Assembly (NCBI RefSeq): GCF_021028975.2
Contig: NC_059426.1
Location: 150,288,001 to 150,352,000 of the forward strand
Source: Sphaerodactylus townsendi
Lineage: Eukaryota
Direction: 5' to 3'
Length of the DNA: 64,000 bases
The notes beneath the pieces were generated by a model. The model was not told the origin of the DNA and did not search any database. It saw nothing but the letters and a program-made list of their open reading frames with translations. A program made the position numbers and the translations under genes. How positions within the stretch are numbered: the stretch's first letter is position 1; each line of letters starts with the position of its first letter. Shown here piece after piece: positions 46,030 through 62,130 of the stretch.

Positions 46030-46715
46030 GGGAAAGGAGCAAGTCAGGTGGATGGGAATGGGTTGGAGAACTTGATCCAAGGACTAATTGTCAAAGGCAT
46101 TTCATCTGATTGAAGGGAGATGTCCCAGGACTCAGTTCTGGACCAGAACTTTTCAATATTTTTATAAAAGATCTGAATGAGGGTGTGGCAAGACTACTCA
46201 ATAAATGTGCAGATGTCACCAAATTGGGAAGAGTAGCAAACAGCCTGGAAGATAGAGATATAATTAAACAAGATTTGAACACACTGGAAAAGCAGGCAGA
46301 TGTGAACAAGGTGCAGTTCCACAAGGATAAGTGCCAAGTTCTACATCTGGGTAACAAAAATGAGGAACTCCCACACTGCATGGGGGAACAGACATCTGGG
46401 TGGCAATGTGTATGAACAAGATATTGGGGTACAGGTAGACTGCAAGTTAAATATGAGCAGCCAGTGTGATGTAGTGACAAAAAAGGCTAATGTCATCTTG
46501 GAGTGTATCAGCACAGGCATAACATCCAAATTACAAGATGTCATCATTCCATCTCTCCTGGCATATTATATGCAGTTCTGGAGGACTCACTTCAGAGGAG
46601 AGTGGCAAGGATGATCAGGGGCCAGGAGACCAAGCTCTATAAGGAAAGGCTTAGGGACCTGGGAATGCTTAGTTTGGCAAAGAAAAAGTTGAAGGGGGTT
46701 ATGATTGCTCATCTG
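46030..46715 (+). mobile_element. CR1 RT fragment
   Basis: VPGLSSGPELFNIFIKDL...KCADVTKLG...DKCQVLHLG; SSQCDVVTKKAN. Confidence 0.9.
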
Positions 46716-48417
46716 GTAGAGGCTGCCAGAGGGGAGCTGAAAACAGAGGGACAGATGCAGGTAGGTTTGCTGTCAACTGGGAAGGAGAGAAGAAAGCAGG
46801 AAAAGGAGACTAGCTATAGGGGCTTTCAGAGAAGGGGAAGAAGAAATAATGAAAGCAGGAAAATAAGATGTTCCCTTAGAGTCCTTGAGCTTCCCACTTG
46901 TCATCTTCTGATAATCACAACCTTATGTTAATGAGTGGAACCCTGACTTTAGAGACTATAAAAGTCTGATAAACCACAAGAGATACCAATATCTGTGTTT
47001 TCTCTGCAGAAGTTTGATGCTATGTAGATAAATCTTTATGAAATTATTTTGGCGTCAGGGTTTTTTCTTAACTATGGAAAGTTCATGTGTATGTTTTGTA
47101 TCACACCAAAAGCTGACAGCTTTTAAATGACTCATTCACTGTGGATGCTTGGCTTCAGTCTGAATCCACCCAGTGTCATTTTGTACCATTGGAGAATCAT
47201 CAGAATCATTCCTTTCCTGATTGTTTGTCCACACACATAGGAAAGTCTTGGCTAGCCCACCACACAGGGTTGGTGTCAAAACACAGAACAAGACATCCTT
47301 GAAGCAAGAGTGGGACAAAGATCAAATAAGCAATCGCAAAGTCACTACCCTCAGTGAAACAGGAAAACCAAACGTTGCAATTCCATATGAAATAATTGAA
47401 GTATGCACTTTGAGGACAGTCATTGCAGGTATTTTTTAATAATGAATAATTGCACATTTGTAAACAAGATGTTTAAAATCTCAGATTGCTCTTGTGTGAT
47501 CGTAAATCAGAATAGCTCTTAGACCAGACAGATGGCTACAGTAAATGAGCAAAGCTTCAGTGATGTCAATAGGGACACGCCAATTAGCACAAGTTGAAAA
47601 CCTAGTGCTATAGATCTAATATTTCTCTAAAGACTCAGACCACAGGGGCACAATTACTGACTGGAGGAATGGAAGTGAAGCACAAGTCTCAGCAAGACTG
47701 AAAAGTTTGCTAGCGGAGATATTCTTGATTAAACAGCAGAAATGTTAAGAGCCATTGTTGTGGTTACTTACAGTGAAATCCTAAGAGCACATTCCTGGGA
47801 GAAAATTGAGCTGAGCAGGATTCTGAGTAGCAGTGTTCAAAACAGTGTTCAGAACTAGCCAGTCTGGTTCTTCTCCTGTTCACGCGTCACAAACAGGGAG
47901 CTGATATTTCAATGATCTCTGTGATGGGTTTTTTTGTTCTTGGTTTTTAACTGCATTCCTTCCTATCCATGCAGTACAGCCCAGTGACTTGTCGGACATA
48001 CATGTCCTCACCCAATGCAGTTGAGATCTCCTACCACCTGTGTAACTGGTGCACTCAGCAAGATGGCCTTTAAACAAACAATTAATCTGGTCAAAAATAG
48101 TATAAATCAATCACGAACAAGTGCTATGTTTTAATAAAACCCGCCCCTTCAGCCTTAATCGATGTAGTCCCTGGTGACACCAATGGCTGACAATCATCTT
48201 TGTACATGCCACGTTTTGCATAAACTGAATGCAAACCTGTTTGGTAGACATTCATGGCTGTTTGGCAGGAACTGAACAGGCTGAATGATTGGTCATACAA
48301 GACATTTAACTGCTGAACATGTTCCTGGTGAAATCTGTAGCATCCCTAATTCTGAATAGACCATTTTAGGATTGCTCTCTTTGTGTACAAAATAATAACT
48401 ATGCATTGGAGACATAC

Positions 48418-49245: not shown

Positions 49246-49391
49246 CCGTGGTGGCGAACCTTTGGCACTCCAGATGTTATGGACTACAATTCCCATCAGC
49301 CCCTGCCAGCATGGCCAATTGGCCATGCTGGCAGGGGCTGATGGGAATTGTAGTCCATAATATCTGGAGTGCCAAAGGTTCACCACCACTG
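49246..49391. mobile_element. Palindromic hAT MITE
   Basis: Near-perfect 146-bp hairpin centred on atggccaattggccat; partial relative at 62565-62645. Confidence 0.88.
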
Positions 49392-52614: not shown

Positions 52615-53048
52615 TATTTATTTGTTTGTTTGTTTAATTTATTATACCACCCACCCCTAAACGGCTCTGGGTGGTGTACAGATAAAACACTTAAAAGTCA
52701 TAAAAACAATTAAAACAGAAATAATGTAAAAATAGAGGCAACGCAACAAACAAAATCTAATGTTGGATGGCAACCCATAAAAAGCCACTAACCCCCTGGG
52801 AAAGGACCAGGCTGCATAAATCGTAGCCCACAAAGATGGTATATAGAGGAGTAGCATGGGTGGGTGGGTGGCAATCAGGGGCTGCCCCCCCCAGGTCTGG
52901 TGGAACAACTCCATTTTACAGGCCCTGTGGTACTGTCCAATGTCCCGCAGGGCCCTGACGGCTGGAGGGAGAGTGTTCCACCAGGCAGGGGCCAGGGCTG
53001 TAGAGGCCAGCCACATCATTGAGGGGCAGAGGACCACCAGCAAATTTG
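52615..53048 (-). mobile_element. L2 LINE 3' end
   Basis: LAPAWWNTLPPAVRALRDIGQYHRACKMELF, nearly the same as the 7402-8331 ORF end; 3' UTR and (TAAA/CAAA)n tail. Confidence 0.88.
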
Positions 53049-53120
53049 CAGCAGTGGCGTAGCAGTTATGAGCAGGTGTACTCTAATCTTGATTCCCTGC
53101 TCTACCACTTGAGCTGTGGA
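53049..53120 (+). mobile_element. 5' fragment of a tRNA-derived SINE fused to the truncated gypsy protease
   Basis: gcagtggcgtagcagttatgagcaggtgtactctaatct...ccacttgagctgtgga matches the head of the SINE at 61525-61816. Confidence 0.7.
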
Positions 53121-53405
53121 GAGGGCCCCTCCCAACAAGGTACCATCCATTTGCTCAAACTGGAGCGGCTGCTTCAACTTTATGAGTTTGAATCTCAACA
53201 TTCCCACCATGTCGGGGTGGATTAGACATCTCGAGAAACCGGAATCGATAAGGGTCTCGGTACGAGTTTGGGTTTGGGACCCCAGGGATGATAGGGTGAC
53301 CATGATGACTATGGGATTGGTTGTGAGGGCACTCACCCACTCCCTAGCGCCCATCGGGATGACCTGGCGATTGGCACACTTCAGGCCAGGTCGACGTTGT
53401 TTCCC
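53121..53405 (-). pseudogene. pol: pol N-terminus: retroviral-type aspartic protease, truncated
   Basis: -1 frame reads GKQRRPGLKCANRQVIPMGAREWVS...TETLIDSGFSRCLIHPDMV...QMDGTLLGG; DSG at 53238-53246. Confidence 0.88.
53346..53405 (-). other. -1 programmed ribosomal frameshift element (G GGA AAC plus stem or pseudoknot)
   Basis: Heptamer 53399-53405; 6-nt spacer; perfect 8-bp stem GACCTGGC/GCCAGGTC; loop AGTGTGCCA can pair with downstream TGGGCGCT; -1 frame is open into the protease. Confidence 0.85.
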
Positions 53406-54832
53406 ACCAGCACGCTGCAGTCTTGGGCATCCAACGCCTCAGAATCGCTTGAGTCACCAACCAGGTTTACCGGGTTGCATGCAGCTTTAGCTGTGGTGGG
53501 GCAGGGTCATTGGAGATCCCTTGTGGGGCCTCTCGGGCATTGCAGGTCCTTGTTTTCAGAAGTTGCTGCTGGGGTGCGGTGTCCCAGGCAAGAAGCAATG
53601 AGGTGGCCGCTCTCTCCGCAATGCAGGCACAGTCCAAAATGGTGACAGTGGTCTTGGATGGATTTGGGGAGGGACCCGCTCACTTCTTAACGTTGTCCTT
53701 TGCCTTCTCAGCTGCCTGGAGCAGTTGGCGTTGGGCTCTGTTCCACTGCTGTTCTGATTGTTCGACTTGCCGGATCCACAGCTCTGCATCCCCTGCTCTC
53801 CTGATGCATTTCATTAACGTCTCAGGGTCGCCGTGGATTAGGGCCCATTGCAGTATTTTGGGGTGTAGGGCATCCTTGAAGAGCTAGACTAGGACCATCT
53901 TTGGCCACCCGCGCAAGCGGCTGGCAAGCCAGTGGAAATTAGCAGCAAATTCGCTGACTGAGCGGTTCCCTTGTCGGAGGCATTGTAGTTCGCCTGTAGC
54001 CTTCTCTTCTGCCAAGGGGTCCTCAAATCGCTTTCATAGGGCTAGTAGGAACGCCCCCCCCAGTTGTAGATCTCTGGTGCCTCTTCCTCTACCAGACCCA
54101 CTAACCAATTGGCAGCCTCCCCCTGGAGCCGGGTCCCGATCTCGAACACTCTCTCCCGGTCCAAGTAGAAGCTGTGGCCATGGATCTCCATGTACAAGCC
54201 CACTTGTATATTAAAAAAGCCAAGCTCATCAGGGTTTCCATTAAAGTTCACCTTGAAACTTTTCCAGGGTCCTCCCTGGGGCGCAGGACCTCGTCGGAAG
54301 GTCATATCGCCCCTTTCAGTAGTGACCAGCCCACCGGTCTGATAGTAGAAACTGTGGTCTGGCATGTGGTCATCCAGTCGCCCCTGCAGGGAGCGCAGCC
54401 CAGATCTCAGTTCACCCCCCTCAGCTACGGAGGCATTGGGAGTCGCATTCTCCCTCTCTCATTCACCCATCAGGACCGCCACTTGCTGCTGAAGGTTCAA
54501 AATGTTGGATCACAGCTGGTCTCTCTCCTGGATGATCTCTGCTGTTCGGAGTTGTAAAGCTTCGTAAGTCCAATGCTGCTTGTCCATTTCATGGTTGGAT
54601 CCACTCCCCAGTGCTTTGAGTTCATTTAAGAATGATGCCAGGCGCGCTCGCTCAGCGTCTGCATTTTGACAGAGGGTGCCGATGTCCACCCTGGATGAAC
54701 GGCGGGGGGTGACTTGCCCGCTCATTCGGGTGTGGGCCACCTCACCAGGGTTCCTCGTCCCAGTGGTGAGCGTCCGAGATAGTGGCCATGTTCCCCTAAC
54801 CCAGCCATCTTTATGGAGAGGTCTGGGCACAT
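53381..54832 (-). pseudogene. gag: gag pseudogene (capsid plus CCHC nucleocapsid) of the gypsy element
   Basis: ORFs 54510-54842 and 54042-54365 share a frame and are split by TGA stops that look like CGA decay; frameshift in the G-run near 54055; knuckle starts at 53629 in frame with the terminal GGA AAC ... TGA (53381-53383); start codon uncertain. Confidence 0.88.
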
Positions 54833-54863
54833 GGTAGAACAAAAGGAGTCAGTTCCAGCACAA

Positions 54864-55159
54864 TGTAAGGCTGAACACACTCAAAGTTGACTTAATAGAA
54901 AGGAATTAACTTTATTGAACTATGTTGCCCTAACTACAGGGTGCTAGAACTGAGGATTCTTGTCCTCTGTTCCAGTATTTATTTCTATTTGTAAAACAAA
55001 GAGTAACCAATCAACTCCCCCATGTCCCCCTGTCCCCGCTCCCCCATTGGCTCCATTGGAGCTGTGTGGTTTCTATTGGCCGCAGCCTCCCGCTCAGTTT
55101 CCCGCTTCTCTAGCCGAAATGGCGGGGACTGGTGGCTGCTGGGAGTTGTAGTTTTGACA
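54864..55159 (-). promoter_or_regulatory. 5' LTR (about 296 bp) of the gypsy element
   Basis: Minus strand starts TGTCAAAAC and ends CCTTACA; ACTACAACTCCCAG motif near the 5' end; three CCAAT boxes (about 55046-55080); ATAAATA TATA-like box 54976-54982; AATAAA 54911-54916. Confidence 0.82.
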
Positions 55160-59052: not shown

Positions 59053-60682
59053 CAGAGGCGTAGCTACAATGGGGACATCTGGGGACAAATGTATTGGGCA
59101 CCCATCATTGGGGGCGCAGAAAAATTTGGGCTCATTTCTAACTTTTTTGGTATTTTTAGTGTTTTTATTTTGTCGGCCAGTAGGGGGCACAATTTTTAGG
59201 CTAGCAGCACTACAGTTTCAGGCTGTTGTCAGGTGACACTCCTGCTGATACCAGCCAAGTTTGGTGAAGTTTGGTGAAGTTTGGTTCAGGGGGTCCAAAG
59301 TTATGGACCTCCAAAGGGGGTGTCCCTATCCTCCATTGTTTCCAATGGGAGATAATAGTAGATGGGGCTACTTTTTCAGGGTCCATAACTTTGGACCCCC
59401 TGAACCAAACTTCACTAAACCTAGGTGGTATCATAAGGATAGTCTTCTGCTGATACCACCCAGGTTTTCTGAAGTTTGTTTCAGGGGGTCCAAAGTTATG
59501 GACCCCAAAGTGGGTGCCTGCATCCCCCTCTGTTTCCAATGGGAGCTAATAGTAGATGGGACTACCCTTTTGAGGGTCCATAACTTTGGACCCCCTGAAC
59601 CAAACTTCACTAAACCTGGGTGGTTTCATCAGGAGAGTCTCCTGAAGATAGCCTAAAATGTTGGTACTGTTAGCTTAAACATTGCTCCCCTGACAGGCAC
59701 CCTCAAATTTTCCCCAGATTCTGGTCCCTTCTGAGTGGATTTAAAGGGAGAATCTGGGCTCCCTAGATTAAAAAAAATGAAAGTATTGTTGAAGGCTTTC
59801 ACAACCAGATTCAACTGGTTGTTGTGGGTTTTACAGGCTGTGTGGCCTTGGTCTGGTACATCTTGTTCTAACATTTCACCTGCATCTGTGGCTGGCATCT
59901 TCAGAGGTGTATCACAAAGAGAAGTCTGTTATAAGAGAAGTCTGGACACAGTGTATAACAGACTTCTCTCTGTGATACACCTCTGAAGATACCAGCCACA
60001 GATGCAGCTGAAACATTAGGAATACAAGCTACCAGACCATGGCCACACAGCCCGGAAAATCCACAATAACCAACATTGAAAATGATGCTATTTGGGGGTG
60101 GGGTGGGGGAATCTACCCTGAAACAGCATCACTTTCAATGTTGTTTAAACTAGGGAGGCCAGAGTCTCCCTTTAAGGTGAATCTGGGCTCCCTAGTTTAA
60201 ACAATATTGAAAATGATCCTGTTTTGGGGTGGATTCTCCCTTTAAGGGGGATTTGAAAGGAGAATCTGGGCTCCCTAATTTAAACAACATTGAAAATTAT
60301 GCTGTTCCAGGGTGGATCCCCCGCCCCCCTCGAACAGCATCTCTTTCAATGTTGTTTAAACTAGGGAGCCCAGATTCTCCCTTTAAGGTAGATTTAAAAA
60401 GAGAATCTGGGCTGTCTAGTTTAAACAACGTTAAAAGTGATGCTGTTTCAGAGTGGATCCCCCCTTCAAAAAATAGCATCACTTTCAATGTTGTTTAAAC
60501 TAGGGAGCCCTGGGTGTGTTCAGATTTGTGTTTTGGGACATGTTCTATAATGTGATGGTGACTTTAAGGGGTCCTGGTGCAAAAAATGTTGTTTGGTCGC
60601 AGTGGGGGAGGGTGGTCGCTCATATGGGGGGCGCAAAACTCAGATTTTGCCCTGGGCTCCATTTTTCCTAGCTATGCCTCTG
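59053..60682. mobile_element. Large non-autonomous hAT-like element with internal palindromic tandem arrays
   Basis: TIRs cagaggcgtagcta / tagctatgcctctg (same TIR class as 13973); no matching TSD. Confidence 0.8.
59788..60075. mobile_element. Inverted (palindromic) Penelope-like pLTR pair nested in a hAT element
   Basis: Arms of about 115 bp at 59817-59932 and 59955-60072 are reverse complements; each has a decayed CTGAAGA...GAAA core. Confidence 0.78.
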
Positions 60683-61816: not shown

Positions 61817-61824
61817 CACTAGAA

Positions 61825-61972
61825 CAGGGGTAGGGAACCTGCGGCTCTCCAGATGTTCAGGAACTACAATTCCCATCAGCCCCTACCAGCATGGCCAATT
61901 GGCCATGCTGACAGAGGCTGATGGGAATTGTAGTTCCTGAACATCTGGAGAGCTGCAGGTTCCCTACCCCTG
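61825..61972. mobile_element. Palindromic hAT MITE with 8-bp TSD
   Basis: Near-perfect 148-bp hairpin; TSD cactagaa on both sides. Confidence 0.93.
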
Positions 61973-62130
61973 CACTAGAAGATACCCATGGTATTGAGTT
62001 GTCTGAACTTTACAAGAAATGGATTTATTTTACTTCTTTCCATTTCTAAACAAATGAGAATTCTAAAATATCTCCTTGTAGCTCCATTGAACAGGATTAT
62101 CTGGATGGTGAAATGGTAGAGAACATATAC

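Follow-up and report, generated by a model that had tools for sequence, protein, structure and literature searches.

A slippery heptamer followed at 6 nt by a pseudoknot causes a fraction of the translating ribosomes to slip back by one base (PMC3835772, PMC4598141). The gag sites of SRV-1, MPMV, JSRV, HERV-K10, FIV and CAEV combine the heptamer GGGAAAC with a spacer of 4-7 nt and an H-type pseudoknot (PMC3835772), and in PEG10 a G GGA AAC heptamer, a spacer of 5-6 nt and a downstream pseudoknot are accompanied by a gag stop at the eighth codon and, soon after, by the DSG motif of the protease (PMC4598141, PMC2800197). GGGAAAC is also used at the sites of PNMA3, PNMA5 and Rtl3 (PMC11299033); since the PNMA genes go back to a metavirus that was domesticated independently (PMC11011659, section 8), this heptamer does not mark a lineage. 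Among the Tf1/sushi retrotransposons other than those of fission yeast, -1 frameshifting is predominant (10.1101/2022.12.06.519325). Here, we describe a gag-pol junction with a comparable layout in a family of gypsy-type elements of the gecko Sphaerodactylus townsendi. Whereas loop 1 of the betaretroviral and lentiviral pseudoknots cited above measures 1-2 nt and no linker is present, loop 1 of the gecko family is 7 nt long and holds the gag stop, and a 4-nt linker is predicted.

One copy of this family lies on the minus strand of the window, i.e. the whole 64,000-nt stretch of DNA that was analysed (contig NC_059426.1, positions 150,288,001 to 150,352,000; Table 1). As originally predicted, gag ends in G GGA AAC with TGA as the eighth codon counted from GGA, a perfect 8-bp stem is found 6 nt past the heptamer, the zinc knuckle is located 75 codons upstream in frame 0, and the -1 frame runs without a stop into a DSG protease. 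An X XXY YYZ heptamer is thus present in the 0 frame over an open -1 frame, with a conserved structure (stem 1) at 6 nt, inside the 5-9 nt interval in which programmed frameshift sites carry one. The arms of stem 1, GACCTGGC and GCCAGGTC, flank a loop of 16 nt; in the predicted pseudoknot, the 6-nt spacer and the 8 bp of stem 1 are combined with a 7-nt loop 1, a 5-bp stem 2, a 4-nt linker and a 9-nt loop 2. The bulged stem 2 proposed at the outset can be drawn in the window copy, but was only 64.5% paired across 96 distinct copies and was dropped for the 5-bp register given in Table 1, in which 419 of 480 cells were paired in the same copies. Extending stem 1 into the spacer yielded pairs in only about half of the copies (33-37 of 68), and the stem was therefore kept at 8 bp.

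Table 1. Features of the retrotransposon copy and its gag-pol junction, in window coordinates
Feature	Position	Strand	Remarks
5' LTR	54864..55159	minus	296 nt, TGTCAAA...CCTTACA
Predicted self-primer in LTR (R region)	54941..54951	minus	complements the primer-binding site, one G-U pair
Primer-binding site, self-priming type	54851..54861	minus	starts 2 nt past the LTR end
Broken gag	53381..54845	minus	coiled coil, capsid, knuckle, tail; 5' limit approximate
CCHC zinc knuckle	53588..53629	minus	75 codons ahead of the slippery site; first Cys at 53629, same frame as heptamer
In-frame TGA, decay	53507..53509	minus	between knuckle and slippery site, window copy
-1 frame ORF, overlap plus aspartic protease	53435-53016 (open)	minus	DSG, D codon at 53246
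Slippery heptamer G GGA AAC	53405-53399	minus	
Stem 1, 5' arm GACCTGGC	53392-53385	minus	after 6-nt spacer; pairs with 53368-53361
Gag stop TGA	53383-53381	minus	within loop 1; codon 8 from GGA
Stem 2, 5' arm GTGCC (family register)	53377-53373	minus	
Stem 1, 3' arm GCCAGGTC	53368-53361	minus	partner of 53392-53385
Stem 2, 3' arm GGCGC (family register)	53351-53347	minus	
Different interspersed repeat beyond the truncation	52858..53049	minus	67-84% match to unrelated loci

Judged by its domains and termini, the element is a truncated, dead chromovirus (gypsy) of the Tf1/sushi group. Its gag, interrupted by stops, is spread across three frames and, owing to this split and to the in-frame TGA downstream of the knuckle, a ribosome coming from the gag start would miss the slippery site in frame. 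The Pfam matches of gag (DUF4939, 29.6 bits; Retrotrans_gag, 24.7 bits) lie at or barely above the cut-off, and that of the protease ORF is weak (Asp_protease_2, E=0.042). The element sequence stops near 53090, and the window copy is devoid of reverse transcriptase (RT), RNase H, integrase and 3' LTR. Other copies of the family carry RT, RNase H, integrase, SH3_Tf2-1 and a chromodomain, in the Pfam order gag-PR-RT-RH-IN with a gypsy-type RT whose best PDB matches are Ty3; in copy L050, the chromodomain (PF00385, 32.8 bits) occupies the integrase's C-terminal end, and SH3_Tf2-1 scores 58.3 bits. At both of its ends, the window LTR is 70-80% identical to 3' LTRs from other copies, and these ends fit the Sushi LTR motifs (Table 3 of PMC3601003). 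The primer-binding site appears complementary to the 5' end of the transcript, the self-priming arrangement that is a hallmark of the Tf1/sushi group (PMC6317226, 10.1101/2022.12.06.519325); among seven other copies in which the LTR end was located, the 11-nt complement inside the LTR was exact in four, carried one mismatch in a fifth and was not found in two. It is on the chromodomain, SH3_Tf2-1, the self-priming site and the Sushi-type LTR ends that we base the assignment to Tf1/sushi, with which the family also has in common, besides the chromodomain being part of the integrase, a CCHC gag and the -1 overlap of gag and pol (10.1101/2022.12.06.519325, PMC2774666, PMC6317226). Within that group, its gag belongs to a long-stemmed clade of which all named members are squamate. 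The LTR pairs of two family copies are 93% and 98% identical, and a UniRef protein labelled Sphaerodactylus townsendi matches a gag ORF of copy L036 at 100% identity. No capsid was retrieved from PDB with single gag ORFs as queries, whereas profiles did retrieve one, and word-indexed protein searches returned either 21 matches, all of them gecko proteins, or none.

Other repeats were seen elsewhere in the window. Positions 59176-60528 hold arrays of direct and inverted repeats with units of ~83, 141 and 195 nt, similar sequence being present in loci L051 and L169; these are probably nested non-autonomous elements of the DNA-transposon type. Two near-perfect, MITE-like palindromes with arms of 71-80 nt that are 93-97% complementary occupy 49248-49389 and 61819-61978, and the plus strand of 46110-46931 encodes fragments which, from the look of the peptide, we take to be a CR1-like LINE reverse transcriptase.

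A single copy is weak proof of a frameshift signal, because a heptamer followed by an 8-bp stem is not rare by chance: 12 matches were obtained among the 671 X XXY YYZ heptamers of the 64-kb window. Single-sequence folding of the window copy placed stem 1 in the minimum free energy structure of 3 of 4 folds, and a 69-nt window adopted another fold; since only the 40-nt hairpin was significant against shuffles (z=-3.0 vs only -0.8 to +0.4 for windows of 53-96 nt), such folding was not relied on. The case rests instead on the family. A DNA search of the genome yielded 42 matches, ~65-75% identical apart from the window itself, and the heptamer-stem pattern gave 98 genomic matches vs 2 for its reversed control. 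A further search used the protease alone, and therefore involved no selection on the frameshift signal; it returned 150 places, 90 of which were read, namely the 30 highest-ranking and another 60 ranked in the lower half. The cassette was in register in 68 of these 90 copies, down to ~40% protease identity, entry to this set requiring at least 8 of the 12 stem 1 core bases to match, which raises the conservation of stem 1. The 22 copies left out comprise 7 members of sister families that lack the cassette (3 of them stop-free in one frame from the knuckle to DSG) and 15 copies that were judged by eye to carry indels or interruptions.

In the 68 in-register copies, the heptamer preceded the DSG codon by 156 or 159 nt (58 copies) and by a multiple of three in 60; it was exact in 32, most of its variants corresponding to CpG-type decay at its two ends. 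Codon 8 was a stop in 64 copies (TGA in 38, TAA in 21 and TAG in 5), and the knuckle lay 72-78 codons ahead of the slippery site wherever this distance could be measured. Some younger copies still have both frames open across the gag-pol junction. All parts of the cassette were intact in only 7 of the 68 copies, including that of the window, as befits chance survival rather than selection after insertion; the intact signal of the window copy has most likely escaped neutral decay by luck. In one copy (L135/L023; G000:C4:139.35 Mb), the loop between the arms of stem 1 is wholly deleted, at a short repeat common to the arms.

Pairing was assessed in an alignment of 98 rows (A4) comprising 64 of the 68 in-register copies and 34 of 36 copies selected with the pattern, i.e. 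on the heptamer and the stem 1 core and not on stem 2; four out-of-register or partly deleted rows and two with 3' deletions were dropped. Stem 1 was 93.1% paired in the 96 distinct copies, and both stems together reached 84.1%, compared to 23-39% in slid controls. A simple pseudoknot search recovered the fold in 50 of the 98 rows vs 19 of 980 shuffles, and no frameshift family of Rfam matched loci L111 or L163 at E<=5. The strongest argument for a structure comes from constraint at silent sites in 57 copies. Transversions amounted to 0-4% at third codon positions within the stems, whereas four third positions outside any pair showed 32-56% and eight fourfold sites around DSG 18-53%. The 5' arm of stem 2 showed 0-4%, and the 3' arm of stem 1, which lies beyond the gag stop, 0-4% at seven of its eight columns and 14% at the top pair. 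The signs of compensatory change in the alignment are modest. When the stems were tested for covariation among copies, as the original prediction had called for, both proved conserved and the covariation score was reached by only 1-2 of 500 shuffles, a value that may be inflated by relatedness, but the counts of two-sided changes over the whole structure did not rise above shuffles (412 and 139 of 500 reached them). Covariation was detected at no position of the stem 1 core, and relatedness and double CpG decay can both mimic compensatory two-sided changes. The pair 53377:53347 changed from G-C to A-U in 7 rows of A4, and the flank pair 53372:53352, which co-changes between subfamilies, was C-G in 32 rows, U-G in 7, A-U in 5 and a pair of unpaired purines in 47; clean compensations are confined to two or three subfamilies.

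We consider it likely that the family-conserved heptamer and the predicted H-type pseudoknot at the gag-pol junction caused programmed -1 frameshifting when the family was active. During translation of gag, a ribosome that meets the pseudoknot at its mRNA entry channel would pause while G GGA AAC occupies the P and A sites; a minority of ribosomes would then slip back by one base and continue into protease and pol, and those remaining would stop seven codons later, in loop 1, thereby setting the ratio of Gag to Gag-Pol. The stop may occupy codon 8 because the heptamer, the 6-nt spacer and the 8-nt arm place loop 1 there. The data establish the sequence, the frames, the conservation, the constraint on silent sites and the assignment to the group; the pseudoknot fold, the slip and its rate are inferred.

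An unlikely alternative with regard to structure is that stem 1, as a plain hairpin, would stimulate a genuine frameshift, and that stem 2 would owe its conservation incidentally to coding in the -1 frame. Stem 2 indeed has just 5 bp, covariation is modest, and conserved Ala and Gly-Ala codons fall within its arms. Coding of those residues sits poorly, however, with silent third positions that are almost solely C or T in both arms of stem 2 (0-4% transversions); and while 61 of 490 core cells are unpaired, 41 of the 61 failures correspond to G>A or C>T decay. In one subfamily, moreover, A-U replaces G-C and an amino acid changes along with it; in others, the helix of stem 2 is lengthened by flank pairs. 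That pol was expressed by splicing or reinitiation, with heptamer and stems arising as by-products of overlapping coding, we regard as very unlikely. The slip itself is a prediction, and many copies display a conserved, splice-donor-like GGTGAGT just downstream; yet GTGAGT encodes a conserved Val-Ser ahead of the protease and persists in sister families in which gag and pol are in frame. Such a scenario is also at odds with the presence of a canonical heptamer precisely in the -1 register and of a structure 6 nt past it, and with the continuation of the constraint beyond the gag stop, where one frame only is coded. Programmed frameshifting at a pseudoknot thus remains our preferred reading of the junction.

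Similar layouts are seen in distant relatives from metagenomes. At the protein level, 19 of 66 gag-like matches ended in G-N plus five residues and 5 of 66 in G-N plus six, Paroedura and Batrachochytrium being included. A search of metagenomes for the knuckle motif, its query seeded with gags that end in G-N plus residues, contributed 80 loci. Of the 49 distinct loci in which the protease was placeable, 44 had it in the -1 frame; 60 of 65 distinct loci satisfied a loose heptamer rule, and 26 of these 60 had their stop at codon 8-9. A pseudoknot search succeeded in 38 of 55 loci vs 22 of 550 shuffles. These gags (L291-L370), whose heptamers among the 60 of 65 loci include G GAA AAC (19), G UUA AAC (11) and G GGA AAC (8), make up a large set of putative natural frameshift signals of a distant Tf1/sushi type. 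A literature search, with most subscription journals outside its reach, found no paper on a squamate gypsy frameshift signal, and the gecko cassette was apparently undescribed before.

The original prediction went on to see in the cassette the ancestral recoding layout of the PEG10/RTL lineage and, in the gecko family, a possible close free-living relative of PEG10. Its placement of the PEG10 gag stop at codon 8 was accurate: two proteins that we take as PEG10 ORF1 (P0110, 131 bits vs the PEG10 structure 7LGA, and P0138, 75% identical to P0110) end in G-N-S-P-A-P-L. The heptamer, the codon-8 stop and the similar spacer (5 nt in PEG10 according to PMC2800197, 6 nt in the gecko family) would all be compatible with a cassette homologous in detail to that of PEG10, and the gecko gag does match DUF4939 and the capsid of 7LGA. 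It may be added that Gypsy-15_Ano, the published proxy of PEG10, is without a frameshift in the account of PMC11011659, hence the wish for a proxy that does frameshift. Close kinship of the gecko family with the element domesticated as PEG10 is, all the same, very improbable, and the comparisons made here largely refute it. Using capsid C-terminal profiles against 7LGA, the frameshifting family scored lowest of the three gecko groups (30.1 bits; its in-frame sister families reached 38.8 and an older gecko family 63.3). A full HMMER protein search returned 2631 matches at E<=0.001, the best 150 of which were examined and supplied P0110 and P0138. In a gag tree of 63 rows and 200 columns, from which RTL1 and sushi-ichi are absent, the frameshifting family, its in-frame sisters and 16 database gags formed a 100/100 clade on a stem of length 0.66, which parts it from PEG10. 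Nine of the 16 database gags are named, all of them squamate (Anolis, Paroedura, Sceloporus, Eublepharis and Ahaetulla), and seven are without names. PEG10 grouped instead with the older gecko family and a Logan protein, P0114 (83/93), and gag did not group the frameshifting family with PEG10 apart from other metaviruses. A single clade of PEG10 and the frameshifting family was rejected by the AU test (p=1.6e-5); PEG10 as sister to the whole squamate clade was not (p=0.40, 200-column gag tree).

Details of the junction also differ. PEG10 belongs to another clade, the knuckle is 24 codons from the slip site in PEG10 ORF1 vs 72-78 in the gecko family, and the codons past the heptamer are not the same. 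The stems of the PEG10 pseudoknot are longer than those of the gecko family and are not known to be related to them in sequence. A stop at codon 8 after G GGA AAC, although present in both, is not diagnostic, as G-N plus five residues also ends gags of Paroedura and Batrachochytrium, and heptamer and stop geometry recur in distant relatives. Nor is the layout specific to the PEG10/RTL lineage, the same heptamer being found in PNMA3, PNMA5, Rtl3 and beta- and lentiviruses and -1 frameshifting being the norm of the Tf1/sushi group; an ancestral layout is plausible at the depth of that whole group. What holds of the original identification is a gag-pol -1 cassette with conserved stems in a sushi-type gypsy element, and what falls is its use as a marker of the PEG10/RTL lineage. 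The likeness to PEG10 is a shared default of the Tf1/sushi group, not a token of close kinship.

The same genome harbors younger sister families (L201-L215, L220, L227-L238) in which gag and pol form one frame, with ORFs of up to 1616 aa. They lack the cassette and have the protease type in common with the frameshifting families. With the older family as its root, a gag and pol tree nested the in-frame sisters inside the frameshifting families (99/100), while a topology holding the frameshifting families together was not rejected (AU p=0.145); in a tree of gag only, the frameshifting families formed one weak clade (85/37) and the in-frame rows were split in two. Locus L038, which fell among the in-frame families in a first fast tree, is probably chimeric. 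The older gypsy family is decayed and represented by L216 (1540-2262; G000:C1:106.51 Mb), L225, L244, L226, L051 and L054. By its capsid (the 63.3 bits vs 7LGA given above, and up to 64.7 bits vs DUF4939), it is much nearer to PEG10, and knuckle and protease share one frame in L216. In L216, L225 and L244, a P-G-N-S peptide without a slippery heptamer is seen at about the knuckle distance of PEG10; this peptide is possibly a relic of a lost frameshift. One old-family copy (L223/L219; G000:C3:48.27 Mb) has a damaged knuckle followed by G GGA AAT and TCC, and its protease lies in the -1 frame with respect to that heptamer; this is a single copy, and its frames are ambiguous. P0114, a protein of 313 aa, is an intact gag of the older family's type that ends in G-N plus five residues and shares 50.6% identity with PEG10 ORF1 across the C-terminal domain of the capsid; it would be a better candidate for a frameshifting relative of PEG10. 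Whether the combination of G GGA AAC, pseudoknot and stop in loop 1 is the ancestral Tf1/sushi design, inherited by both PEG10 and the squamate clade and repeatedly lost by in-frame fusion, with P0114 as the frameshifting proxy for the PEG10 ancestor that the 2024 survey lacked, is a scenario that we put forward tentatively and with more doubt than confidence.

In conclusion, these results leave the known mechanism of frameshifting unchanged and offer a good new example thereof, in the form of a well-supported cassette for a large family of squamate retrotransposons with dozens of natural variants to compare. They also correct an easy inference, in that the pairing of G GGA AAC with a codon-8 stop is no sign of PEG10 kinship, being common across the Tf1/sushi group, and they point to the older gecko family and P0114 as better candidates for free-living relatives of PEG10. 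Frameshifting and single-ORF sister lineages coexist in one gecko genome and, if the scenario of an ancestral design with repeated loss is true, would provide a natural series for the gain and loss of recoding.
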